A stretch of DNA of 64,000 nt from Pecten maximus (taxonomy: Eukaryota), in NCBI RefSeq assembly GCF_902652985.1, contig NC_047033.1:6076001-6140000 (forward strand). The letters run 5' to 3'. Below are positions 22,093-64,000 of the stretch, piece by piece (position 1 is the stretch's first letter; every line of letters starts with the position of its first letter). The position numbers and the translations under genes were made by a program. Below the pieces are notes generated by a model, which was given only the letters and a program-made list of their open reading frames with translations, was not told the DNA's origin and searched no databases.

Positions 22093-24234
22093 AACTTTGT
22101 GGCAGCCATTTGATACTGTTTTTATTTTAAGCTACACTTGTATGGAGTTGCAAAAGGAAGACGATTTATAGTAATACAGAGACATACCATAACCAGAATG
22201 CTATTTTAGTAAAGGAATCAAATATTTCTCATGTCAACCTGTTGCTCTTAATGACATTTCTAGATAGATCTTTATGTACAATGTCGAATGAAATCCGATA
22301 AATCAGGGAAGTAGAGGAAGTTCAATCAATACGGACAAGAATTTATTGATGTATATTTTATTTTTTCAGAAAGTACATAACTTTTATGCGTGTTGATGTT
22401 ATGATACATCTTTAAGACAACGAAGGATACATTTGCATTTTAACCGAGATAATCGACTCCGATAATGAACACCTCAATCTTCAGAAATAAAGAATATTTG
22501 TATACCTGTTTCTCATTTACGTGATTATAGAATGAAACGAAGAAAAAGAAAAATAGATTACAATAATCACAACTTGCATATTGCCATTCATATAATGGAA
22601 TATTACGGGATGGTAAATCTTTAGCTGTTTTGGGGTTAGATCTGATCAATAAACTCCGATATGTCGACATGGGCTCCGACACCATAAGGTTCCGACCAGA
22701 GGTTGTCGAGTACAGCGAAGATCTTGGCATCGACTTCCGTCGTCCCTTCACAGCTGTCTGGAGATGGCGGCGTATCTTTCTCCATGATACACCGAACTGT
22801 ATTAGTCCGCCTTCTGAAACACAAGAATACAGTCTGTTTTTGCATTACGTATACATTGTCCTCTGTCGACAATTTTAGTGGCACCGTCCATAATATCATA
22901 CGTATCTATCCCATTACGGACTATATTTTGTCGCGTTATGATTCAGTTAACCTAATTTAGTTACTGCGTTGGGAGAATTTGAACTCGACATTTGTACCCA
23001 AACCAAACGAGTGACGGTTGTTGATAACAGTTTCGTTAGTTAATTTTCAAATTTAGAAATAATTTGTACGCACTATTGACCCCTAGCATCACTGTCATAT
23101 GCTAGCAGGATAGCACAGGTCTATATATAGTTTTTTTTATAGTATTGTTTAATATCCTAACAGTATCTCAAGCTAACCAGATATTGTCATTTGAATAATA
23201 TAGACAGCCTCCCCTGTGTGCAAGATGCATAAGGGTGGTGAACGTGTTTTCTTCGTCATACACAATGTAGATGAGCTTTATCTCGATCTATGTCTTATGT
23301 TAACGTGTAAATCTCGCCATTGCGATAGTATAAATGTCTAATTACTGTTATTACGCCTACATAATGTATATGTCAAGAACCATGGTTTTAGCATCGTTCA
23401 TGTCATCTTCGCTAACCAAGGGTTACTCAACGCTATGCTCCATTTCACCCTTGGCTTCGTTCATTACCTACCCACTGACGCCTCCCGCGTATGACCGTAG
23501 AGAATCGGCCGAGGTGTTCCGAGTGGTGAAATGGGGCATAGCGTAGAGTAACCATTGGCTAGCGAAGATGCGTTCATGTAACTGGCGTCGTGTGTTCACA
23601 TCAATCGGACTAGTTCGGGCCTTTCCGACAAGCTCGGAAAAACACCCGAGTTGGCAATCGGAGACCCTGGTCCTTTTCGAATGGAGCAACTCGCAGCTGT
23701 GCGGAGGCCACACGGAACTTCCGCTTTGTAGGAGTCATACTAATCGGCTAAGGTATTCCGAAATGTATGGTCATAAGTGGCCAGCTTTAGAGTTTCGTAT
23801 CATCAGTATGAGAAATAACTTAAAAAGATTTTTTTAAATTTTAATTACTGAAAAAAAAAAAAAAAAAAAATAAGATTTAAAATTATATTTATAAGGAAAT
23901 TTTGAAGGAAAGCATCTAAAATTCAACGTACAACCATGCACTCAAAGGGGTCCCTATTTATGCAGCCCAAAACATGAATTAAATGATCTATTACATTTAA
24001 AAATAATTATTCCATGTTTATAAATTCCGAAAATTCGCAAGATAGTTATAGTGGAACCGAATCAATCCAAGCAATGGCATATCTGGAACAATCCCGAGTC
24101 TTCATTTTCTGATCAGTTATTCCGAACGTCCCGTTTACGTACTTCCTTTTGCGCTGCTCGTTCAAGCACGTGGCGGATAGGTAAGATTTGGCAAGTCTGT
24201 TCTTTGACAGTTCAGAACTTTAATCTTTCAAAAT

Positions 24235-24789
24235 ATGCTAAGGGTTGGCATTGTAGGTTCCTCACATGTAAGGCGCATGGATCAATCCAATGAGTTTATC
24301 TATGGTACCACGGTTTCGAGATATTTTTCGAGAAGTGGTGGGATAGTAGAACACATGTATGGGTTCATGTCTGTCTTGTGTGCGTTTCGTCCCAATGTTA
24401 TTTTCCTACAGATAGGAGGGAATGACATAAATGAAAATACATGTCCAGAACACCTTGTTCGGGACATCATGTGTCTATGTCAAGAACTATATCGTAGGGT
24501 AAATGGACTGGAATGTGTCATTGTTGGCTCACTTTTCCTCAGGCTTCGTACACGTGGTGTCCCAGCAGCTCAATACGAGGTGCTCCGACAGCGCGTTAAT
24601 GAGTGTCTGGAGCGACAGGTGTATGGTCGGTTTGTGTTCTGGAAACATAAGAGGCTCGTACCTTCTTGTCTCTGTGAAGATCAGGTACACCTAAATGTTG
24701 TAGGAAACAGGCGACTACACTGGTCAATGAAAAGTGCAGTCGCGACCTTTCTCAAGGGACGATTTAGATTTCAACAGATAGATGCTTAG
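24235..24789 (+). CDS. Single-exon SGNH/GDSL-type hydrolase domain protein (184 aa), probably carried by a mobile element
   Basis: Block I IVGSSHVRR, block II RSGG, block III FLQIGGNDI and block V EDQVHLN are all present in an intact ORF. Confidence 0.8.
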   Translation: MLRVGIVGSSHVRRMDQSNEFIYGTTVSRYFSRSGGIVEHMYGFMSVLCAFRPNVIFLQIGGNDINENTCPEHLVRDIMCLCQELYRRVNGLECVIVGSLFLRLRTRGVPAAQYEVLRQRVNECLERQVYGRFVFWKHKRLVPSCLCEDQVHLNVVGNRRLHWSMKSAVATFLKGRFRFQQIDA

Positions 24790-25269
24790 GTATGCAGTAG
24801 TGGACCTGTGAATCATGCAGACACAACTCTAATTAAGGTAAATTATTATACAGTTAATGACGAGGAGTTCCGATTGTCGCAGACGGAGGCGAGGTGTTCC
24901 GATTGCGAGGTGGATTATTGAAAAGAATACCCAATGAGTTCCGATTGGTGTTCACAGGTGTACCAGTTCTCAATCCTCATACGACTTGTTCACAGCACGT
25001 GTGGAGTAATTTATGAGAATAAAGGAATTTGTATATAGAAAGTAATCGGTAAATAAATTCGTACCTTGTCCACCATTCAATACCCAGGGAGATATTCATT
25101 GACGAATCTGGCCTGTCGGGAATCTCGCTGTATCCACGTGGATAGCACGGGTTAAAGACCGTTCTCCAAAACCTGGCACAATCTCCCGTTAAAGCCGTTT
25201 GTACAAACGTCTGCAAAACTGTCAAAAGAAATGACATATTACTTCCCTTCCATGTCATTCATTGTAATA

Positions 25270-32300: not shown

Positions 32301-32867
32301 TATTCTATTATGCTTCTGGTTTCTCCTTAGTCAAATAATATTTGTCTGCGCTAAATAGGCGCACTTTTAACCTCGAGACACACTTAAATCTCTCTTTCCA
32401 ACCAGTAAAACCTGGTAATTTTGTGTCTCCGTAGTTATATCTGATATGAATTTTGTGTCTCCTTGGATACCTCTATTATACTTGTCAGTTTCCTTACTTA
32501 CATTCCTTATGACAAGTGTCTCCCTAGTGCATCAGACCTGACCTATGGTTCTATTGTAGCGTCATTAATGTTGCTTTACTTAAGGAAATCCCTTAACTTA
32601 AAATTGCTCAAAGGAAAGAAAGCATTGTAATATTTAGATAAGTTCCTGCATTCATACTTCTGTTTAAATTCAGGGCCACATTCTCAGACAAGGTTTGTGA
32701 TAAACGGTGAAAAAAAAATAAAAAATAAAAAATAGCACTTTATTTCCCAATCAATCACACCTTTTGAATGAATTTGGAACTTTACAACATCTTTTACAAA
32801 TGTTCATAAGAAACAATAAAGCACTTCTATTTTGCCAATAATAACATTGTTTTTATTAATGTGAAAC

Positions 32868-35250
32868 TTAACTTGTCTTCCATCCCGAAAATGTTGGATT
32901 TGAGACTTCTGTAGATATTTTACCTCTCGCGATGTGACCTACACGAACAAATACATGGTCTCCCTTGCTGAGAGCCAGTACGGTGGTGGCAGATGTTTGG
33001 TGCAAGTCTCCAACCTCGTCTGCGTCTGTGAACGAGTTTCCTAGTGCAACGCCATTTACAATCAGCTGTGACTGAAATGATGCATGCCGATCTGCCATGG
33101 GGTCCAAGTAATGACGTAGGTTCCGGACTCTGGGGCACTGTAATAATACAAACGTTTCGATGTATGTTAATAAGTTTTTTTCATTGCTATAGCAAACCAC
33201 ATAGACAACTGTATTCGCCGTTACAACAAAACGCACACACGACACCTGTCTACTAAGTATTAATACCTCTAAAGTTCAGCTTTAAATAGGTAAATGTTTA
33301 CGTAAAGCGTGCTACTGTGCCAGATTATTACAATGTACAGTTGTGTCGTATGGGAAAATAAGTACATCTTCAATACCACGACAAATAACAAGTATTTAAA
33401 TGGTAAAATAGGTTCCGAAAATGGTAAGAAGCACTCTCACACTGGTATTGTGCGCGGTGCGTTTGGTGTAATACCGTGAGGTGATGCATGAGTGTAGATT
33501 GATGCGGTGTTGTGATATAAGTGTTGGTGAGGTAAGGTTTATATGTGGTGCGTTTTGAGCTATGAGACGTTCGTGCTGTGGTATGGTGTAAAGTTGTGAT
33601 AGGACGAGTGCGGTTCGGAGGTTCAGAGCTGTGCCGTACGGTAGTGTGCGATGATTGTTTGTCAGTTATAAAACCTGGTTCTGGCTTAAAGCTTAAAACA
33701 CAATTATTAATTTTACACCTGTAGATGCCATCAAGTGGATTGTATCCGTCTCCTTGATCGAGCTGTTCCTGGTCAAAGACAACTGTTGAATGCGGACTAG
33801 CATCTACAGTATGTGAAAGCGAGGCATGGAAGGCAATCGTCTGTCCTGTCGCTACTCCTGGAACCAAGAACAAAAACTAATATAATTGTTTGATATATTA
33901 TTAAAAGGAACTCATGCATGACCAGGGGAAGTATAAGTCTGCAATATAACTGTGATGTAAGATGAGACATATTGTGGAAGCCCTAGTGGCTATGTAAGAT
34001 GTTACTTTATGTTACATGCAAGTTAGTCCAAATCATATCAAATAAAATAAACGTTGGCATAGTTCGATTGCACAAAAAGAAAAAAAAAACGAAAAAAGAA
34101 AATTTGTCATCGAAGATTAAACATTATTCTCAAATCAAGCAATTACTTTTTCTGTATTTAAGGTAGAAATATTACACCATATTATGATATAGTGAAGACG
34201 ACCATGGGACTACTATTCTGACCAATGTTACTAAAATACAGCTTCTTAATCTTTTTCTGACATTTTGCAAACGTATCTTGTAGACGTAACCGCAATACAT
34301 CACACGATGCATTATAGGTCATTTGTGTCAATCAGAACTATTACAGACACTATTTCATTACTATGTTGAAATCATAATTCATATGATGAAAGGTTAATCT
34401 ATATAGACAATACACAGTATAAAAATAATTATTGAGCACAGGTAACAAGTCTGGTACCGTCTTTTAACTGTATTGCATTTTGGACTATGCATAGCTGACC
34501 ATTTAAAGTGTTTGTTTTTGATGTCACTGTATTTACCTCTCGAAAAATGACAAATACCAACGACGTATTCGATAGTCTAGTTTTTCCGCAAAATACCAAA
34601 ATCTAACACCCCAGAGCGAAAAAAAACACACAAAAATTACGTTTTTGTTGGAATCCCTGTACCTCAGTGTCTTTCAAATGAACACGGCGATGGCGGAACG
34701 TCTTCGAGGAAGTCCATTGTGGTTTATAGTCATCAAGTGAAGGGGTACCGAGTTGTGCAATGTGTGGATTTTGTATGTTTTCACGTTGAAGGATAGAAAT
34801 ACCGTCTGCCGATGTATTTGTGTAGTCGTGGCGTTTGTCAGATGTAAGAGATTCGTTGACGATAAATTTTGTCCTATGTGTATTTTCACGTGATGTAAAC
34901 AGATTCGATGAATTAATGTCCTCCAAATTGGCGAACACGTCCGACTTCGATTCTAAGGTAGGTGTTGTTTGTCCTTGAATTCCAGCATGCTTAGAATTCA
35001 CCAGTTGAAGTAATCTCACGTCCTGTTTTAACTGCATCATCTCTACATTTTGGTTCTGTAGTTCACTTTTAAGTTGAGCTATGTGTCCGTCTTTGATATT
35101 CATCAGACGTTCAAAATGGCCGACTTTCTGATTTACAAATATTACGAGTTCATTCCATTCCCGAGGTAGGAGTTCCTGGTTAGACACCCCAGTGTGTATT
35201 TGTCCAAATTCACAGGAAACACAAAATATTAGTAAAAGAATAACATACAT
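32868..35250 (-). CDS. Secreted coiled-coil C1q-domain-containing protein. Exons 35250-34641, 33857-33719, 33137-32868; apparent 1-nt frameshift near 33100 (pseudogene or assembly error)
   Basis: Signal peptide MYVILLLIFCVSC, a heptad region, and a gC1q domain: IAFHASL...VVFDQEQLDQGDGYNPLDGIY|SAPESGTYVITWT...LSKGDHVFVR...TFSGWK. Confidence 0.85.
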
Positions 35251-35458: not shown

Positions 35459-37840
35459 TTACTTGAAAAAAATACTTCTTTTTCCAATGGTTAAGTCTTT
35501 ATTATACCATAATGGGGTTTTCCAGATATTTTTCTTCTTAATTTGTTTTACCCTATCACATTCATCAAAACTATTTTTACATTTCTTTAGACACTCCCGA
35601 ATATATTCATTACCACAGGTGGATAGCATATGTAGATCAATAATAGTTTTTAAAATGACTTGCCATTTACCTGACTTCTGAAATAGCCTTCTTACCCATC
35701 CTAGCTTCAAAGAATCAATAAAAAGTCTAATATCTACCATTTTGAGTCCTCCATCACTGTAATCCTGTATTAATACATCCCTTTTTATTTTGTCTGTTTT
35801 ACTATTCCACAAAAAATTAAAAAGTATCTGGCTAAGATTATTCAAAAAGTGATTGTCTGGATTTGGCAATGACATAAATAAATGATTCAATTGAGATAAC
35901 AACAGAGTTTTGATGAGATGAATTCTACCTATTGGAGTAAGTAATCTCCTACTCCATATCTTAATAATAGATTTAAGTTTGATCAACTTTTTGTCAAAGT
36001 TTAATTTGGGAATTTCATGAAGATTAACACTAAATTCTATGCCAAGAAGGGTAAATTTTGCCATTCCCCATTTTAATTTTAACTCTGGCAGAAAAGTATC
36101 TTCACTATATATTTTACTCCCTATCCAAATCACCTGTGTTTTGTCTATATTCAATTTCAAACCAGAGATTTTTGCAAAGGTATTCAATTCAAAAATGGAC
36201 TCCCTTAAAGAATTTTCTGAACCATCTAATATCAGAGAGGTATCATCAGCATACTGTGAGATTAGGATTGGAGTGTTACTAACATTTATGCCTTTAATTC
36301 TACTGTTATTTTTTAGTCTAATACTCAAAATTTCTACACAAAGGATAAAGATATATGGAGCGATTGGATCCCCTTGCCGACAGCCTCTTTTAATATTAAG
36401 GAAAGATGACAAATTGCCCCCTTGATTTACAGTAGCATTTACATTATTATGCAGTACTTTTATCCAGTTTTGTATGTCAGGACCAAAATTGAAAAATTTG
36501 AAAACCTTATCAATAAATCTCCAAGAAACAGAATCAAAAGCTTTTTCAAAATCTATCATTAATAACATTCCTGGAATATTGTTTTCCTCAGCATATTGCA
36601 TAACATCATAAACTAATCTAGTGTTTTCCCCAATAAGTCGGCCAGAAAGAAAACCTGTTTGATCATCACTTATGAGTTTATCTAAAACATTTCTAATTCT
36701 ATTTGCTATAGATCCAGAGGCAATTTTATAGACTATATTTAATAATATTATGGGTCGCCAATTTTTCAAAAACTGTCTAGGTTTATCCCCCTTAGGAATA
36801 CACGTAATTATACCTTGTCTTTGTGTAACTGATAACATACCTTTCTTATATCCAAAATTTATAGACCTTATAATAAAAACCCCTAGATATTTCCAAAAGC
36901 ACTTAAAAAATTCCACAGTGAAGCCATCTGAACCAGGGCTCTTATTATTTTTCATGTTCTTCAAAGTTTTTGCTGCCTCATCAATAGAAATAATGCCTTC
37001 TAAGCTTTCAGAATCACCATGATCTAATTTTCTTACACTAAAAGTATCTAAAAAATCCATCAAATTTACATCTTCAATTGTTTCATTGTCTGCATATAAT
37101 TTTTCATAAAATGAACGAATCTCTTCAAGAATATCATCCTGCTTCGAAATAACTACATTATTCTCTTTATCAATTTTTGGTATTATTTTGGATGTGAAAT
37201 TCCTATTTTCTAGATTAAAAAAATAACTTGTCGGTTTTTCTCCTTCTTCTTGCCATTTTGCCCTAGACCTTACAAAACTGCCCTTAATCCTATTAAGCCT
37301 GATATTTTCTAATTCCTTTTTCTTTCTTTCAAGTTCTTCCACATCTACCTGTTCCTGCTCTTCAATATCTTGAATGGCTTGTCTTAGGTTATTTTCAGTC
37401 TGAGTTTGTTGTTTCTTTCTATAAGATGAATAAGATATTGTTTTCCCCCTAATTTCCATTAACAAAATTTCAAGAAAGAGTTGATCATTAATTACATACT
37501 GTAAATCTGTATCAGGAATGTTGGCAATACTGTTAAGGTTGTAAACTGGAAGACAATATTGAGTTTTTATATCCAAAATAGTTTTTTAACTAGTTGTAAA
37601 TATTCTTCATGGTATAATAAGGACGTGTTAAATTTCCAAACCCCCCTCCCCCGTCTGAATTCGTTAAATTTTAAATTTACTGTTGGGAATGAATGGTCTG
37701 ACCTATATCCAGATTCTATACCTGAGCTATTGACACTAGATAACAGATTGTCTTATAAAAGGAAAAAATCCAATCTAGCCTGTTTAATTGGGGTTTTCTT
37801 CCTCCACGTATACCTTCTACTATCAGAATGTAACTCCCTA
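35459..37840 (-). mobile_element. L1/Tx1-clade LINE ORF2 fragment (endonuclease C-terminus + complete RT), truncated at both ends
   Basis: 705-aa ORF with KSPGSDG, NWRPIILLN, IDFEKAFDSV, RQGDP and QYADD. Upstream EN motifs (YTW...RLDFFL, SDH, WKFN) are offset by a stop and a frameshift. Confidence 0.95.
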
Positions 37841-38057: not shown

Positions 38058-39625
38058 ATGTGTGTGGCTATCATCATTATTTTATTGGCGGTCTCTACAT
38101 ACGGTTGTCATGGCCAGGTACCAGATGCAGTAAATCTGCCCAGACAATGGCAAGACCTTGTATCGGTAGTTGACCAAAAAATTGGTCAAATGGAAAACCT
38201 GGTGAACATTCAAGATCAACGCATCGACCAGCTGGAAAATAAACTACAAACTCAAGTTTCTGAAATAACGTCGCTAAAACGTTTAATGAATCTAAAGGAT
38301 GTTGTTCTAACAAAATTGATGAAACAAGTTGCGGATTTAGAGAATCGTGTGGATATAAGTCCTAACACAGATATCAATGGAAACATACCAGGGAACACCA
38401 CACGATTCCCTGAAGAATCAACTACCTTAACCAATCGGAGTTCTGTTGTCCCGGAACAGCCGTATGCTGTTCTTAGGGACTCTCGCGTACATTCACCCAG
38501 CGAAGACAATGAACAGGTCAGCGTGGAACTCCAAGACGCATCCAGGGACTTGACGAGATCAGCACATTCCAATCGTAAGTTTGAATTTACTGTTGGTAGT
38601 TGCCTGACTAACAAGATACTAGATCAACTTCATCACATTGTGACTTAATCAACCAACTCGATACCGAAATGCTTGTCAGAGGCACAATATACTTAATATA
38701 CTTATAGAAAATGATTACGCATGTAAACCAATAGCCACAATGGTTCATCGGCATGGTATACGTAGTGGTTACACATTGAGTATTTGTTGTACACTTGAAT
38801 ATGGTATATCTTTTACTCTCGTTGGATATTTTTTAAAAGTTACACAATAACGAGCTTTAGCGAATAATTTAATTATCCTGCAATAATAAAGTAGCCAACC
38901 GCCTACCTTGATTGAAAGATTATCTATTGGCCACCTAGGCTTATTTCAGGATAATGATGCTACTATAAACGTTCGTATTTTATCGGTACTTTTGTTTTAG
39001 CGCTACCTGCCATCAAATCATCGTAATAAAATATCACTCTGCCAGTATGAGTGGTGTATACGTCATGTTATTGTTGCGCTGTAATTTGTCATTAACAAAT
39101 ATAATGCGCTAAAATTTGATTCCGCCAAAATAAGTTTTTTCCCACCAAAATGGGTACTTTTCCCGCCAAAATTAGTCCTTTAACAGTAGTCATTCTTGTT
39201 TGACAGGTGCAGCCTATCAAGAACAGGTTGCTTTCCACGCCTATCGTACCTCAACTGTAACCCTTGGCTCACTAGCCACGGTAGTGTTTGACCACGAGAC
39301 ACTAGACCAAGGGGATGGATATAACCCCCGTGACGGGATATACGTGGTACCAGAGTCTGGCATATACGTCATCACATGGACTATGATTTCCTTGGGCCGC
39401 TGTGCATTCCAAAATCAACTGGTTGTAAACGGAGCGACAAGAGGGAATACTTGGACAGATTCAGAAGAAATTGCGGACAGCCACCAAGTGACAGGGACCG
39501 TGCTTATCAACTTGAATCAAGGCGATCGTCTCTTTATTCGCATGGGTCGAATATATCGTAGCGGCGGAATCTTCAGTGATGCTTCTTATGCCAACCCTAC
39601 GTTTTCAGGCTGGAAACTTGGTTGA
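38058..39625 (+). CDS. Secreted coiled-coil C1q-domain-containing protein. Exons 38058-38574, 39207-39625
   Basis: Signal peptide, coiled coil, a phase-1 GT-AG intron, and an intact gC1q domain (VAFHA...VVFD...GDGYNPRDGIYVVPESGIY...LNQGDRLFIR...TFSGWKL). AATAAA at ~39705. Confidence 0.93.
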
Positions 39626-53244: not shown

Positions 53245-56200
53245 TAAACCCGTACAGGATACACCGCCTCACCAAGGTATAAACCCGTACAGGATACACC
53301 ACCTCACCAAGGTAAACCCATACAGGATACACCGCCTCACCAAGGTAAACACATACAGGATACACAGCCTCACCATGGTAAACCCAAACAGGATACACCG
53401 CCTCACCATGGTAAACCCTTACAGGATACACAGCCTCACCAAGGTATAAACCCGTACAGGATACACCACCTCACCAAGGTAAAGCCTTACAGGATACACC
53501 ACCTCACCAAGGTAAACCCTTACAGGATACACTACCTCACCAATGTAAACCCTTACAGGATACACTGCCTCACCAAGGTAAACCCATACAGGTTACACTA
53601 CCTCACCAAGGTAAACCCATACAGGATACACTACCTCACCAAGGTAAACCCATACAGGATACACCGCCTCACCATGGTAAACCCGTAGAGGATACACCAC
53701 CTCACCAAGGTAAACCCATACAGGATACACCGCCTCACCAAGGTAAACCCATACAGGATACACTACCTCACCAAGGTAAACCCATACAGGATACACCGCC
53801 TCACCAAGGTAAACCCGTACAGGATACACCGCCTCACCATGGTAAACCCGTACAGGATACACCGCCTCACCAAGGTGAACCCGTACAGGAAACACCACCT
53901 CACCAAGGTAAACCCATACAGGATACACCGCCTCACCAAGGTAAACCCGTACAGGATACACCGCCTCACCAAGGTAAACCCATACAGGATACACTGTCTC
54001 ACCAAGGTAAACCCGTACAGGATACACCGCCTCACCAAGGTAAACCCGTACAAGATACATCGCCTCACCAAGGTAAACTCAGACAGGATATACCGCCTCA
54101 CCAAGGTAAACCCATACAGGATACACCGCCTCACTCAGGTAAACCCATACAGGATACACCGCCTCACCAAGGTAAACCCATACAGGATACACCGCCTCAC
54201 CAAAGTAAATCCGTACAGGATACACCGCCTCACCAAGGTAAAGCCTTACATGATACACCACCTCACCAAGGTAAACCCATATAGGATACATCGCCTCAAC
54301 AAGGTAAACCCATACAGGATACACCGCCTCACCATGGTAAACCCGTACAGGATACACCACCTCACCAAGGTAAACCGATACAGGATACACCGCCTCACCA
54401 AGGTAAACCCATACAGGATATACCGCCTCACCAAGGTAAACCCGTACAGGATACACCACCTCACCAAGGTAAACCCATACAGGATATACCACCTCACCAA
54501 GGTAAACCCGTACAGGATACACCGCCTCACCAAGGTAAACCCGTACAGGATACACCGCCTCACTCAGGTAAACCCATACAGGATACACCGCCTCACCAAA
54601 GTAAACCCATACAGGATACACCGGCTCACCAAGGTAAACCCATACAGGATACACCACCTCACCAAGGTAAACCCATACAGGATACACCACCTCACCAAGG
54701 TAAAACCATACAGGATACACCGCCTCACTCAGGTAAACCCATACAGGATACACCGCCTCACCAAGGTAAACCCATACAGGATACACCGCCTCACCAAAGT
54801 AAACCCGTACAGGATACACCGCCTCACCAAGGTAAAGCCTTACATGATACACCACCTCACCAAGGTAAACCCATATAGGATACATCGCCTCAACAAGGTA
54901 AACCCATACAGGATACACCGCCTCACCATGGTAAACCCGTACAGGATACACCACCTCACCAAGGTAAACCGATACAGGATACACCGCCTCACCAAGGTAA
55001 ACCCATACAGGATATACCGCCTCACCAAGGTAAACCCGTACAGGATACACCACCTCACCAAGGTAAACCCATACAGGATATACCACCTCACCAAGGTAAA
55101 CCCGTACAGGATACACCGCCTCACCAAGGTAAACCCGTACAGGATACATCGCCTCACCAAGGTAAACTCAGACAGGATACACCGCCTCACCAAGGTAAAC
55201 CCATACAGGATACACCGCCTCACCAAGGTAAACCCTTACAGGATACACTACATCACCAAGGTAAACTCATACAGGATACACTGCCTCACCAAGGTAAACC
55301 CGTACAGGATATACCACATCACCAACGTAAACCCTTACAGGATACACTACATCACCAAGGTAAACTCATATAGGATACACTGCCTCACCAAGGTAAACCC
55401 GTACAAGATATACTACATCACCAAGGTAAACCTGTACAGGATACACCGCCTCATCATGGTAAACCCTTACAGAATACACCGGCTCACCAAGATAAACCCG
55501 TACAAGATACACCACCTCACCAAGGTAAACCCGTACAGGATACACCACCTCACCAAGGTAAACCCATACAGGATACACCGCCTCACCAAGGTAAACCCAT
55601 ACAGGATACACCGCCTCACCAAGTTAAACCCTTACAGGATACACCGCCTCACCAAGTTAAACCCATACAGGATACACCGCCTCACCAAAGTAAACCCATA
55701 CAGGATACACCGGCTCACCAAGGTAAACCCATACAGGATACACCGGCTCACCAAGGTAAACCCATACAGGATACACCGGCTCACCATGGTAAACACATAC
55801 AGGATACACCACCTCACCAAGGTAAACCAGTACAGGACATACTACATCACCAAGGTAAACCCTTACAGGATACACTACATCACCAAGGTAAACCCTTACA
55901 GGATACACTACTTCACCAAGGTAAACCCTTACAGGATACACTACATCACCAAGGTAAACCCTTACAGGATACACTACCTCACCAAGGTAAACCCTTACAG
56001 GATACACCACCTCACCAAGGTAAACCCATACAGGATACACTACCTCACCAAGGTAAACCCTTACAGGATACACTGCCTCACCAAGGTAAACCCATACAGG
56101 ATATACCACCTCACCAAGGTAAACCCGTACAGGACATACTACATCACCAAGGTAAACCCTTACAGGATACACTGCCTCACCAAGGTAAACCCGTAGAGGA

Positions 56201-59200
56201 TACACCACCTCACCAAGGTAAACCCATACAGGATACACCGCCTCACCAAGGTAAACCCATACAGGATAAACTACCTCACCAAGGTAAACCCGTACAGGAT
56301 ACATCGCCTCACCAAGGTAAACCCATACAGGATACACTACCTCACCAAGGTAAACCCGTATAGGATACACCGCCTCACCAAGGTAAACCCATACAGGATA
56401 CACCACCTCACCAAGGTAAACCCGTACAGGATACACCACCTCACCAAGGTAAACCCATACAGGATACACCGCCTCACCAAGGTAAACCCATACAGGATAT
56501 ACCAGATCACCAAGGTAAACCCTTACAGGATACACTACATCACCAAGGTAAACTCATATAGGATACACTGCCTCACCAAGGTAAACCCGTACAGGATATA
56601 CTACATCACCAAGGTAAACCCGTACAGGATATACTACATCACCAAGGTAAACCTGTACAGGATATACTACATCACCAAGGTAAACCCATACAGGATACAC
56701 CGCCTCACCAAGGTAAACCCATACAGGATACACCACCTCACCAAGGTAAACCCGTACAGGATACACCGCCTCATCATGGTAAACCCTTACAGGATACAGC
56801 GGCTCACCAAGATAAACCCGTACAGGATACACCACCTCACCAAGGTAAACCCGTACAGGATACACCACCTCACCAAGGTAAACCCATACAGGATACACCG
56901 CCTCACCAAGGTAAACCCATACAGGATACACCGCCTCACCAAGTTAAACCCTTACAGGATACACCGCCCTCACCAAGTTAAACCCATACAGGATACACCG
57001 CCTCACCAAAGTAAACCCATACAGGATACACCGGCTCACAAGGTAAAACCCATACAGGATACACCGGCTCACACCAAGGTAAACCCATACAGGATACACC
57101 GCCTCACCATGGTAAACACATACAGGATACACCACCTCACCAAGGTAAACCAGTACAGGACATACTACATCACCAAGGTAAACCCTTACAGGATACACTA
57201 CCTCACCAAGGTAAACCCTTACAGGATACACTACATCACCAAGGTAAACCCATACAGGATACACTACCTCACCAAGGTAAACCCTTACAGGATACACTGC
57301 CTCACCAAGGTAAACCCGTACAGGATATACCACCTCACCAAGGTAAACCCGTACAGGACATACTACATCACCAAGGTAAACCCTTACAGGATACACTGCC
57401 TCACCAAGGTAAACCCGTAGAGGATACACCACCTCACCAAGGTAAACCCGTACAGGATACATCGCCTCACCAAGGTAAACCCATACAGGATACACTACCT
57501 CACCAAGGTAAACCCGTATAGAATACACCGCCTCACCAAGGTAAACCCATACAGGATACACCACCTCACCAAGGTAAACCCGTACAGGATACACCACCTC
57601 ACCAATGTAAACCCATACAGGATACACCGCCTCACCAAGGTAAACCCATACAGGATACACCGCCTCACCAAGTTAAACCCTTACAGGATACACTGCCTCA
57701 CCAAGTTAAACCCATACAGGATACACCGCCTCACCAAAGTAAACCCATACAGGATACACCGGCACACCAAGGTAAACCCATACAGGATACACCGGCTCAC
57801 CAAGGTAAACCCATACAGGATACACCGGCTGACCATGGTAAACACATACAGGATACACCAACTCACCAAGGTAAACCAGTACAGGACATACATCACCAAG
57901 GTAAACCCTTACAGGATACACTACATCACCAAGGTAAACCCTTACAGGATACACTACCTCACCAAGGTAAACCCTTACAGGATACACTACATCACCAAGG
58001 TAAACCCATACAGGATACACCGCCTCACCAAGGTAAACCCTTACAGGATACACTGCCTCACCAAGGTAAACCCGTACAGGATATACCACCTCACCAAGGT
58101 AAACCCGTACAGGACATACTACATCACCAAGGTAAACCCTTACAGGATACACTGCCTCACCAAGGTAAACCCGTAGAGGATACACCACCTCACCAAGGTA
58201 AACCTTACAGGATACACTACATCACCAAGGTAAACCCATACAGGATACACCGCCTCACCAAGGTTAACCCATACAGGATAAACTACCTCACCAAGGTAAA
58301 CCCGTACAGGATACATCGCCTCACCAAGGTAAACCCATACAGGATACACTACCTCACCAAGGTAAACCCGTATAGGATACACCGCCTCACCAAGGTAAAC
58401 CCATACAGGATACACCACCTCACCAAGGTAAACCCGTACAGGATACACTACCTCACCAAGGTTAAACCCTTACAGGATACACCGCCTCACCAAGGTAACC
58501 CATACAGGATACACCGCCTCACCAAGGTAAACCCGTACAGGATACACCGCCTCACCAAGGTAAACTCAGACAGGATACACCGCCTCACCAAGGTAAACCC
58601 ATACAGGATACACCGCCTCACCAAGGTAAACCCTTACAGGATACACTACATCACCAAGGTAAACTCATACAGGATACACTGCCTCACCAAGGTAAACCCG
58701 TACAGGATATACCACATCACCAAGGTAAACCCTTACAGGATACACTACATCACCAAGGTAAACTCATATAGGATACACTGCCTCATCATGGTAAACCCTT
58801 ACAGGATACACCGCCTCACCAAGTTAAACCCATACAGGATACACCGCCTCACCAAAGTAAACCCATACAGGATACACCGGCTCACCAAGGTAAACCCATA
58901 CAGGATACACCGGCTCACCAAGGTAACCCATACAGGATACACCGGCTCACCATGGTAAACACATACAGGATACACCACCTCACCAAGGTAAACCAGTACA
59001 GGACATACTACATCACCAAGGTAAACCCTTACAGGATACACTACATCACCAAGGTAAACCCGTACAGGATATACCACCTCACCAAGGTAAACCCGTACAG
59101 GACATACTACATCACCAAGGTAAACCCTTACAGGATACACTGCCTCACCAAGGTAAACCCGTAGAGGATACACCACCTCACCAAGGTAAACCTTACAGGA

Positions 59201-62200
59201 TACACTACATCACCAAGGTAAACCCATACAGGATACACCGCCTCACCAAGGTTAACCCATACAGGATAAACTACCTCACCAAGGTAAACCCGTACAGGAT
59301 ACATCGCCTCACCAAGGTAAACCCATACAGGATACACTACCTCACCAAGGTAAACCCGTATAGGATACACCGCCTCACCAAGGTAAACCCATACAGGATA
59401 CACCACCTCACCAAGGTAAACCCGTACAGGATACACTACCTCACCAAGGTAAACCCTTACAGGATACACCGCCTCACCAAGGTAAACCCATACAGGATAT
59501 ACCGCCTCACCAAGGTAAACCCGTACAGGATACATCGCCTCACCAAGGTAAACTCAGACAGGATACACCGCCTCACCAAGGTAAACCCATACAGGATACA
59601 CCGCCTCACCAAGGTAAACCCTTACAGGATACACTACATCACCAAGGTAAACTCATACAGGATACACTGCCTCACCAAGGTAAACCCGTACAGGATATAC
59701 CACATCACCAAGGTAAACCCTTACAGGATACACTACATCACCAAGGTAAACTCATATAGGATACACTGCCTCATCATGGTAAACCCTTACAGGATACACC
59801 GCCTCACCAAGTTAAACCCATACAGGATACACCGCCTCACCAAAGTAAACCCATACAGGATACACCGGCTCACCAAGGTAAACCCATACAGGATACACCG
59901 GCTCACCAAGGTAAACCCATACAGGATACACCGGCTCACCATGGTAAACACATACAGGATACACCACCTCACCAAGGTAAACCAGTACAGGACATACTAC
60001 ATCACCAAGGTAAACCCTTACAGGATACACTACATCACCAAGGTAAACCCTTACAGGATACACTACCTCACCAAGGTAAACCCTTACAGGATACACTACT
60101 TCACCAAGGTAAACCCATACAGGATACACTACCTCACCAAGGTAAACCCTTACAGGATACACTGCCTCACCAAGGTAAACCCATACAGGATACACCGCCT
60201 CACCAAGGTAAACCCATACAGGATACACCACCTCACCAAGGTAAACCCGTACAGGATACACCGCCTCATCATGGTAACCCTTACAGGATACAGCGGCTCA
60301 CCAAGATAAACCCGTACAGGATACACCACTCACCAAGGTAACCCGTACCGGATACACACCTCACCAAGGTAAACCCATACAGGATACACCGCCTCACCAA
60401 GTAAACCCATACAGGATACACCGCCTCACCAAGTTAAACCCTACAGGATACACCGCCTCACCAAGTTAAACCCATACAGGATACACCGCCTCACCAAAGT
60501 AAAACCCATACAGGATAACACCGGCTCACCAAGGTAAACCAATACAGAGACACCGGCTCACCAAGGTAAACCCATACAGGATACACCGGCTCACCATGGT
60601 AAACACATACAGTACACCACTCACCAAGGAAACCAGTACAGACATACTACATCACCAAGGTAAACCCTACAGATACACTACATCACCAAGGTAAACCCAT
60701 ACAGGATACACTACCTCACCAAGGTTAACCCGTAATAGGATACACCGCCCACAAGGTAAACCCATACAGGATACACCACCTCACCAAGGTAAACCCGTAC
60801 AGGATACACCACCTCACCAAGGTAAACCCATACAGGATACACCGCCTCACCAAGGTAAACCCATACAGGATATACCAGATCACCAAGGTAAACCCTTACA
60901 GGATACACTACATCACCAAGGTAAACTCATATAGGATACACTGCCTCACCAAGGTAAACCCGTACAAGATATACTACATCACCAAGGTAAACCCGTACAG
61001 GATATACTACATCACCAAGGTAAACCTGTACAGGATATACTACATCACCAAGGTAAACTCAGACAGGATACACCGCCTCACCAAGGTAAACCCATACAGG
61101 ATACACCGCCTCACCAAGGTAAACCCTTACAGGATACACTACATCACCAAGGTAAACTCATATAGGATACACTGCCTCATCATGGTAAACCCTTACAGGA
61201 TACACCGCCTCACCAAGTTAAACCCATACAGGATACACCGCCTCACCAAAGTAAACCCATACAGGATACACCCGGCTCACCAAGGTAACCCATACAGGAT
61301 ACACCGGCTCACCAAGGTAACCCATACAGGATACACCGGCTCACCATGGTAAACACATACAGGATACACCACCTCACCAAGGTAAACCAGTACAGGACAT
61401 ACTACATCACCAAGGTAAACCCTTACAGGATACACTACATCACCAAGGTAAACCCTTACAGGATACACTACCTCACCAAGGTAAACCCTTACAGGATACA
61501 CTACTTCACCAAGGTAAACCCATACAGGATACACTACCTCACCAAGGTAAACCCTTACAGGATACACTGCCTCACCAAGGTAAACCCATACAGGATATAC
61601 CACCTCACCAAGGTAAACCCGTACAGGACATACTACATCACCAAGGTAAACCCTTACAGGATACACTGCCTCACCAAGGTAAACCCGTAGAGGATACACC
61701 ACCTCACCAAGGTAAACCCATACAGGATACACCGCCTCACCAAGGTAAACCCATACAGGATAAACTACCTCACGAAGGTAAACCCGTACAGGATACATCG
61801 CCTCACCAAGGTAAACCCATACAGGTTACACTAACTCACCAAGGGTAAACCCGTATAGGACTTATCACCGCCTCACCCAATGGTTCAAACCCCATACAGG
61901 ATACCCCACCTCACCAAGGTAAACCTTACAGGATACACCAACCTCACCAAGGTAAACCCATACAGGATTACCACCGCCCTACCCAAGGTAAACCCATACA
62001 GGATATACCAGCTCACCCAGGTAATCCCTTCCAGGATACCACTACATCACCAAGGTAAACTCATATAGGATTACACGGTTGCCTCACCAAGGTAAACCCG
62101 TCAGGATATCTACATCACCAAGTGTAACCCGTACAGGATATACTACATCACCAAGGTAACCTGTACAGGATTATTATACTTACATCACCAAGGTAAACCC

Positions 62201-64000
62201 ATACAGGATTACACCGCCTCACCAAGGTAAACCCATAACAGGATACACCACCTCACCAAGGGTAAACCCGTACCAGGATTACACCGCCTCAATCATGGTA
62301 AACCCTTGCAGGATACAGCGGCTCACCAAGATAAACCCGTACAGGATACACCACCTCACCAAGGTAAACCCGTACAGGATACACCACCTCACCAAGGTAA
62401 ACCCATACAGGATACAGCGCCTCACCAAGGTAAACCCATACAGGATACACCGCCTCACCAAGTTAAACCCTTACAGGATACACCGCCTCACCAAGTTAAA
62501 CCCATACAGGATACACCGCCTCACCAAAGTAAACCCATACAGGATACACCGGCTCACCAAGGTAAACCAATACAGGATACACCGGCTCACCAAGGTAAAC
62601 CCATACAGGATACACCGGCTCACCATGGTAAACACATACAGGATACACCACCTCACCAAGGTAAACCAGTACAGGACATACTACATCACCAAGGTAAACC
62701 CTTACAGGATACACTACATCACCAAGGTAAACCCATACAGGATACACTACCTCACCAAGGTAAACCCGTATAGGATACACCGCCTCACCAAGGTAAACCC
62801 ATACAGGATACACCACCTCACCAAGGTAAACCCGTACAGGATACACCACCTCACCAAGGTAAACCCATACAGGATACACCGCCTCACCAAGGTAAACCCA
62901 TACAGGATATACCAGATCACCAAGGTAAACCCTTACAGGATACACTACATCACCAAGGTAAACTCATATAGGATACACTGCCTCACCAAGGTAAACCCGT
63001 ACAAGATATACTACATCACCAAGGTAAACCCGTACAGGATATACTACATCACCAAGGTAAACCTGTACAGGATATACTACATCACCAAGGTAAACCCATA
63101 CAGGATACACCGCCTCACCAAGGTAAACCCATACAGGATACACCACCTCACCAAGGTAAACCCGTACAGGATACACCGCCTCATCATGGTAAACCCTTAC
63201 AGGATACAGCGGCTCACCAAGATAAACCCTTACAGGATACACCACCTCACCAAGGTAAACCCGTACAGGATACACCACCTCACCAAGGTAAACCCATACA
63301 GGATACACCGCCTCACCAAGGTAAACCCATACAGGATACACCGCCTCACCAAGTTAAACCCTTACAGGATACACCGCCTCACCAAGTTAAACCCATACAG
63401 GATACACCGCCTCACCAAAGTAAACCCATACAGGATACACCGGCTCACCAAGGTAAACCAATACAGGATACACCGGCTCACCAAGGTAAACCCATACAGG
63501 ATACACCGGCTCACCATGGTAAACACATACAGGATACACCACCTCACCAAGGTAAACCAGTACAGGACATACTACATCACCAAGGTAAACCCTTACAGGA
63601 TACACTGCATCACCAAGGTAAACCCTTACAGGATACACTACCTCACCAAGGTAAACCCTTACAGGATACACTACATCACCATGGTAAACCCATACAGGAT
63701 ACACTACCTCACCAAGGTAAACCCTTACAGGATACACTGCCTCACCAAGGTAAACCCGTACAGGATATACCACCTCACCAAGGTAAACCCGTACAGGACA
63801 TACTACATCACCAAGGTAAACCCTTACAGGATACACTGCCTCACCAAGGTAAACCCGTAGAGGATACACCACCTCACCAAGGTAAACCCATACAGGATAC
63901 ACCGCCTCACCAAGGTAAACCCATACAGGATAAACTACCTCACCAAGGTAAACCCGTACAGGATACATCGCCTCACCAAGGTAAACCCATACAGGATACA
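53245..64000. repeat. 33-bp satellite DNA array (>10.7 kb, >320 monomers; continues past the window end)
   Basis: Monomer ggtaaaccc(a/g/t)tacaggatacacc(g/a)cctcaccaa. A length divisible by 3 explains the long repetitive ORFs on both strands. Confidence 0.98.

Follow-up and report, generated by a model that had tools for sequence, protein, structure and literature searches.

How a coding exon comes to be split by an intron that its neighboring paralogue does not have is the question raised by a C1q-domain gene of the scallop Pecten maximus. The gene lies on the minus strand of the window, by which we mean the whole 64,000-nucleotide stretch analyzed here (assembly GCF_902652985.1, contig NC_047033.1, positions 6,076,001 to 6,140,000), and its gC1q exon is split by a 581-bp segment. 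The first-pass annotation of this DNA described an exon broken at TACAG by a segment (33718-33138) that starts with GT and ends in a second TACAG, and it proposed that a mobile insertion of the Introner type had created a perfectly spliced intron in one paralogue, or else that a weak donor had merely inactivated the gene. The layout is as it described. The 5′ half of the gC1q exon (33719..33857, minus strand) closes with the first TACAG (33723-33719, minus strand), which serves as the exonic part of the donor and at the same time opens a pair of 5-bp repeats; the second TACAG (33138..33142, minus strand) is the acceptor and the second copy of that repeat; and the 3′ half of the exon (32868..33137, minus strand) runs on to the normal stop codon (32870-32868).

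Coding exon 1 (34641..35250, minus strand) is an open reading frame of 203 codons plus one base that is covered by RNA contigs, is joined to 33857 in three of the four RNA runs, and matches RefSeq protein P0001. Its product has a hydrophobic N-terminus, a probable coiled coil, and a linker, the signal and coiled-coil labels having been read by eye. Intron 1 (33858..34640, minus strand, 783 bp) is the family's customary intron ahead of the gC1q exon; a GT-AG joint that skips its 783 bases is found in RNA runs X2, X8, and X9, and the bins within it at 33914-34620 have zero depth in all four RNA runs. Six oyster C1qDC paralogues consist of two exons and one intron, and bivalve C1qDC genes occur in tandem clusters (PMC6835236, in excerpt). 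The window gene resembles the two-exon bivalve genes in that a secreted-type N-terminus is followed by a gC1q domain, but it differs from them in having a second intron, within the gC1q exon. Two loose contig ends in X8 (34662 and 33859) fit an alternative intron 1 donor that lies 21 nt upstream and in frame (window 34661 and 34640).

The 581-bp segment is a spliced intron

The intron (33138..33718, minus strand) is in phase 2, splitting a Ser codon between its second and third bases, with the donor GTGTAA and the acceptor TACAG. Sliding of the cut over five bases allows six registers, of which only one is GT-AG. The donor is off-consensus at +4 to +6 but is preceded by exonic CAG, and a likely branch site read from the sequence, TTAAC (33166..33170, minus strand), would place the branch A 30 nt from the acceptor. 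A search for RNA reads joining 33719 to 33137 had been proposed at the first pass; the joint, with five ambiguous letters, is present in contigs of all four RNA runs (X1, X2, X8, and X9, from two studies). Single contigs of X2 and X9 hold both this joint and that of intron 1. It is absent from all four DNA runs (X4, X5, X10, and X14), whose contigs bridge the insert junctions with at least 31 letters per side: both junctions in X10, the 5′ junction in X4 and X5, and the 3′ junction in X14. Because the joint is lacking in DNA runs that each bridge at least one insert junction, the joined form reflects splicing and not an empty allele. We note that X1 and X2 are RNA on record, while the assignment of X8 and X9 to RNA and of the other four runs to DNA is a guess. 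The 581-bp segment is a true spliceosomal GT-AG intron, removed exactly though not always, and the exact join in four of four RNA runs contradicts the suggestion that its weak donor simply inactivates the gene. Two RefSeq models, of 274 and 339 aa, both read GIYSAPESG across the site, and the intron is already annotated in RefSeq. At the level of titles, the open-access literature on intron gain in molluscs or scallops and on mollusc Introners holds no remark on it, although the Introner species lists of PMC9860276 and PMC12130899 may include molluscs, and no paper was found to name the three gene identifiers.

The insert itself is covered by contigs in all four RNA runs, those of X1 and X2 extending 25-30 letters into the exons, below the 31-letter rule. 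Contig depths are 2.8-7.5 for the retained form and 5-17.2 for the spliced form, values that are not usable to rank the two, as contigs lose rare variants and their depth is no measure of the retention rate. The runs were sought with a stretch half made of insert, which biases the selection toward insert-bearing, retention-rich samples. Since the insert is covered but intron 1 is uncovered in the same RNA runs, DNA carry-over is argued against, and splicing of the 581-bp intron is probably leaky. It is also the last intron, so that retained transcripts would carry no downstream junction marking them for decay. New Drosophila introns have weaker splice sites (PMC2809761, in excerpt), and the scallop intron shares with them a weak donor and stop codons inside the intron. 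The two differ in that NMD has been proposed to clear the unspliced RNA in Drosophila (same excerpt), whereas the scallop intron is the last one and retained-form contigs are present. There is a hint here that an intron that is new, weak, and last in its gene can become fixed while it is partly retained.

In the window allele only, the retained intron continues the frame of the upstream exon for 115 codons (33373..33717, minus strand). In dinucleotide block shuffles, a post hoc test, chance gave an opening of this length in 0.5% of cases when only the observed frame was considered and in 2.7% when all frames were. It has no Pfam match, and 2-bp deletions shift it in X5, in X10, and in the second genomic copy of the insert described below. 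A functional retained isoform was rejected, the frame being broken in other haplotypes. We also rejected a captured exon: acceptor-like and donor-like motifs can be picked out by eye in the core of the insert, and no internal joint occurs in the RNA contigs.

Gain in one lineage of the gC1q family

A genome search with the neighboring paralogue as query, which favors unbroken exons, gave 106 matches, four of which are half-exon rows of the host gene itself. By hand count, 99 of the other 102 cross the intron site unbroken, and the remaining three are fragments. A codon by codon comparison of 31 rows of close copies gave 28 distinct copies that are unbroken (29 rows, one a duplicate; the other two rows are one truncated fragment). 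The neighboring paralogue (gC1q frame at 39176..39622, plus strand) has no intron at the site and reads an unbroken GIYVVPESG, as had been stated from the outset. In a tree of 30 gC1q domains, from which L036 was excluded as a duplicate of L032, the host gene groups with Ylistrum balloti P0002, the product of LOC132547565 (100/99), and is nested among intron-less paralogues. This orthologue, identical to the host gene at 105 of 135 residues, is known as protein only and is the sole one recovered from three protein searches; a metagenome scan returned no relative.

Within this large scallop family of C1q-domain genes, the 581-bp intron is a gain made in a single lineage. The opposite histories, in which an ancestral intron was lost from all paralogues or an unspliced insertion killed the gene, are barely credible. 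The window allele is truncated and retained-form contigs exist, but loss would need many separate events on the gC1q tree, the segment is spliced in every RNA run, and the truncation is due to a separate 1-base deletion, the other allele encoding an intact protein with the same intron. The proposal of an intron gained in a single paralogue and perfectly spliced stands, on the RNA joint, the unbroken paralogues, and the nested position in the tree. With about 100 intron-less sister genes as controls, this RNA-supported single gain makes a neat teaching case, and it adds a mollusc to a list of gains drawn mostly from Daphnia, Drosophila, fungi, and algae (table in PMC3443670, a source used in part).

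The Ser of the junction codon is common to the Ylistrum orthologue and occurs in none of the 28 intron-less copies. At the level of sequence comparison, this fits an AG target that may predate the insertion, or an intron that may be older than the Pecten-Ylistrum split, in which case the intron ends would have had time to drift. Transfer of an intron from a paralogue was considered and rejected: no paralogue has a similar intron at the site, and apart from the window the intron is present only in what is probably the second haplotype.

Two gC1q fragments in the C17 tandem cluster, L036:1501-1773 and L030:626-733, are cut short, start near residue 40, and are 91% like L027. They were rejected as intron-bearing copies, having no upstream half in the locus and no AG at the break.

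The second copy and a downstream deletion

A second copy of the insert lies at G000:C19:6163235-6163810, in a block (G000:C19:6148883-6194765) that starts directly after a 100-N gap and is collinear with window 17696-53200 at 90-99.5% identity. The contigs listed for X10 are mostly second-copy variants at full depth. By protein database matching, the product of the window gene is P. maximus RefSeq LOC117317741 (XP_033728541.1, 274 aa), and the gene of the second copy is LOC117317736 (XP_033728535.1, 339 aa), from the same species. The second block is probably an uncollapsed second haplotype; in practical terms, the two RefSeq genes are probably alleles of one locus, one of them frameshifted.

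Substitutions between the copies amount to 3.3% in the insert, 3.7% in intron 1, and 0.7% in the gC1q exon halves. Because the insert has diverged like intron 1, it must have been in place before the two haplotypes separated, and no constraint on it is visible. No empty, insert-free allele was found in the four DNA runs, and the insert is likewise covered in the four RNA runs, these eight being part of a biased selection of 15 matching runs. On the best reading, the insert is in every haplotype examined and the insertion is old and fixed; as no empty allele was found, the pre-insertion sequence is a reconstruction.

The expectation that splicing restores GIYSAPESG exactly holds at the junction but does not carry through the rest of the window allele, which is one base short between 33100 and 33099 (33099..33100, minus strand), 38 nt past the new junction. 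It meets an early stop at 33064-33062, 12 codons past the deletion, and the 274-aa product is left without most of the C1q domain. Against the Pfam C1q model (PF00386, cut-off 23.7 bits), the intact allele P0006 scores 56.7 and the window allele P0001 scores 20.3, below the cut-off. Both X10 and X14 carry the extra base, as does the second copy; the contig of X4 and all RNA-run contigs (X1, X2, X8, and X9) do not show it. Since the deletion segregates among runs, it is no assembly error. The second copy encodes an intact 339-aa protein with the same 581-bp intron. The C1q domain of the window allele is cut by the deletion whatever the splicing, and both the deletion and the intact second copy had been missed at the first pass. 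The host gene may be under relaxed selection in P. maximus.

The two copies also differ between the two C1q genes, where window 35462-37831 stands opposite 8.9 kb of the second copy (G000:C19:6165537-6174449). The window side holds a 708-codon frame (37585-35462, minus strand) that is absent from the second copy and that, from its motifs, we take to be a LINE reverse transcriptase. The 8.9 kb of the second copy carries a third intact gC1q exon (C19:6167604-6167999), a possible case of gene presence-absence variation. Farther away, window 24208-24786 (plus strand) holds an unbroken 193-codon frame with what we presume to be SGNH-hydrolase-like motifs; the stretch around it (23678-24855) has no megablast match of at least 250 bases in the second copy.

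Source of the inserted DNA

Genome searches with the whole insert, each half, and its first 79 bases gave significant matches to the window and one other copy only, in a DNA search that skips very common words, so that the lack of a match is no proof of rarity. Searched against its own genome, the 114-aa frame gave other matches only at E values of 0.3 and 0.4. A 24-nt pattern from the 3′ end, with three mismatches allowed, gave two extra matches, neither of which extends, versus three in the reversed control. The depth of X10 DNA contigs is 32-45 across the insert versus 189-295 at a true repeat (32560-32620) 500 bp away. Compared with 43 fetched loci and stretches, the insert had a best other match of 20 bp (E 0.024); nothing like it turned up in Rfam, Pfam, phages, or plasmids, and it has no significant match within the window. 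The insert is single-copy apart from the probable second haplotype and, within the reach of these searches, belongs to no family.

Three further sources were tried and rejected. A mitochondrial origin is made unlikely by stops in every frame under table 5. A tandem genomic duplication would make the insert resemble flanking exon sequence, yet profiles of 26-27 paralogue gC1q exons, at the DNA and the protein level, gave no hit to it and the window no significant match. For an origin from a paralogue exon start or from intron 1, the profiles were blank and the local scores of 28 and 27 are at the level of shuffle maxima (26-33). Some short likenesses were seen. The acceptor before the gC1q exon of L027 matches the last bases of the new intron at 16 of 17 positions, with no further homology; the unrelated L048 has a 14-base match to the same intron end, probably a common AT-rich word; and the ten bases around the new donor (33723-33714) are identical to the ten at the acceptor and exon start in the closest paralogue, L013, a likeness that does not extend.

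These searches bear on the Introner proposal. Like some Introners, those with a TSD, no TIR, and a co-opted 3′ splice site, the scallop insert has its GT within the insert, its AG within the repeated bases, and an unchanged mRNA, but Introners come in families of similar introns (PMC9860276 and PMC12130899, both in excerpt), whereas the scallop intron has no relative. It is highly improbable that the intron belongs to an Introner family still active in creating introns throughout the scallop genome. Its exact splicing, the repeat at the acceptor, and the enrichment of Introners in aquatic species (excerpts of PMC9860276) are in favor; against it are the single copy, the absence of a TIR, the failure to find an empty allele in four DNA runs, and a haplotype divergence like that of intron 1. 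The first-pass annotation had looked to dispersed copies with 5-bp TSDs as the check on a mobile element and had named a single-copy sequence free of element features as evidence against one; only the window and the probable second haplotype were found, the X10 depth is flat, and there are no independent inverted repeats.

What the insert looks like is more distinctive than where it matches. Its C/A-rich, CpG-rich core (33419..33658, minus strand; insert bases 60-300) has 47% GC, versus 34% in the 3′ half of the insert and 32% in intron 1, with a CpG observed/expected ratio of 1.43 and a faint 5-nt periodicity. Among 1747 local 240-nt windows, six pass a similar composition filter, and two of these are the insert's two copies, in agreement with the earlier description of a GC-richer core unlike the local introns. 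The periodicity has z = 2.8 at lag 5, yet intron 1 gives z = 2.6 at lag 7, and TRF reports only a 2.1-copy 15-mer inside the insert. The core composition is foreign to local introns and points to foreign DNA, not to any source.

The inverted ends TGTAA...TTACA noted at the first pass do exist (33717-33713 and 33143-33139). Their 3′ arm, however, shares four of its five bases (TACA) with the direct repeat, so that either the TSD or the inverted ends could belong to an element, but not both. If TACAG is taken as a TSD, the ends match at 3 of 12 positions; if TGTAA...TTACA are taken as the ends, 8 of 12 match and the flanks, GG and GT, give no TSD. A 5-nt inverted match arose in 4.6% of simulations that kept the GT and the last five bases, and of 78 inverted pairs, the 25 longest include no terminal inverted repeat of the insert. 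TACAG as a TSD is possible. Acceptors were called heuristically at 26 paralogue loci; three loci gave no call and two were under the pyrimidine cut-off, and among the 21 acceptors that remained, 3 close with TACAG. Given an exon end in TACAG, a 5-bp repeat is therefore expected by chance about 1 time in 7, so that the repeat does no more than suggest a staggered break. A solo LTR has TG...CA ends flanked by a TSD of 4-6 bp. It was rejected here as such: TG...CA occurs at 33717 and 33139 with flanks GG and GT, and given the length a TSD could be no more than 2 bp.

We favor, at about even confidence, an origin by insertion of some 576 bp of unrecognizable DNA at a staggered break in TACAG. The break would have opened inside the gC1q exon, and the joining of the new DNA would have duplicated five bases. 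The insert would have brought the GT of the donor; the left TACAG would supply the exonic CAG that offsets a poor intronic donor, and the right TACAG would supply the acceptor, aided by a T-rich end and by the TTAAC 30 nt upstream. In this reading the insertion is older than the split of the two assembled haplotypes and now drifts as intron 1 does. The frameshift 38 nt past the junction is a separate, later, segregating mutation. Neointrons of Daphnia pulex have been attributed to the repair of staggered double-strand breaks, with 33 terminal repeats of 4-12 bp and a source that is mostly unknown (PMC4202315, in excerpt; mechanism in the review PMC3443670, also in excerpt). The scallop intron shares with them a derived position in a coding exon, a short direct repeat (5 bp here) joining the exon end to the far end of the intron, and no identifiable source. 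It differs in age: the Daphnia gains were found within populations with both alleles (PMC4202315, in excerpt), whereas no empty allele was seen in the eight scallop runs and the divergence equals that of intron 1, which makes the scallop intron older. Of the features used to recognize neointrons of the break-repair type, the locus has a 5-bp direct repeat, which is not beyond chance alone, and no transposon or paralogous-intron source within the sensitivity of the searches.

The main rival to break repair would leave the same footprint. The insert could be the last recognizable copy of an extinct non-autonomous transposon, or, as a variant, an eroded solo LTR, that made a 5-bp TSD, carried its own GT, and took its acceptor from the TSD; we consider this possible, though on balance doubtful. 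The geometry is that of the Introners of Chrysochromulina, with a TSD, no TIR, their own 5′ site, and a co-opted 3′ site (excerpts of PMC9860276), solo LTRs do form introns (excerpts of PMC12130899), and the 8 of 12 matching positions at the TGTAA...TTACA ends and the foreign core are in line with it. However, the genome holds no second family member, the X10 depth over the insert is far below that of the nearby true repeat (32-45 versus 189-295), and the TG...CA ends are not accompanied by a 4-6 bp TSD. The excerpts of PMC9860276 treat repeats of core splice bases as ambiguous and test TSDs only in families of 15 or more. No new mechanism is revealed by the locus, and break repair and a dead transposon are inseparable except through an empty allele or a source.

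Another reading, which we judge unlikely, is an older gain by an untraceable route, with the TACAG repeat reflecting the usual likeness of CAG at exon ends and acceptors. The share of paralogue acceptors that end in TACAG (3 of 21), the match of the intron's last 17 bases to the unrelated L027 acceptor (16 of 17), the Ser common to the Ylistrum orthologue, and the fixation of the intron in all samples examined suit this reading, but the weakness of the donor, the apparent retention, the high CpG content, and the distinct core give the impression of an intron younger than one at equilibrium, new Drosophila introns being the ones with weaker sites (excerpts of PMC2809761). It is very unlikely, in our estimate, that an undescribed scallop element able to generate introns, and to duplicate 5 bp of its target, survives in this intron, and that its diverged relatives form other lineage-specific introns in pectinids; the intron would then be fixed yet leaky, and two products would come from the gene, one C1q-headed and the other, from retained transcripts, ending in a Ser/Thr/His-rich tail.

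Elsewhere in the window, positions 53245-64000 are a long tandem array with a period of about 33 bp that runs past the window end. Exons at 45095-43640 and 3064-2612, both on the minus strand, presumably belong to two methyltransferase-like genes, one NNMT-like and the other METTL21-like.
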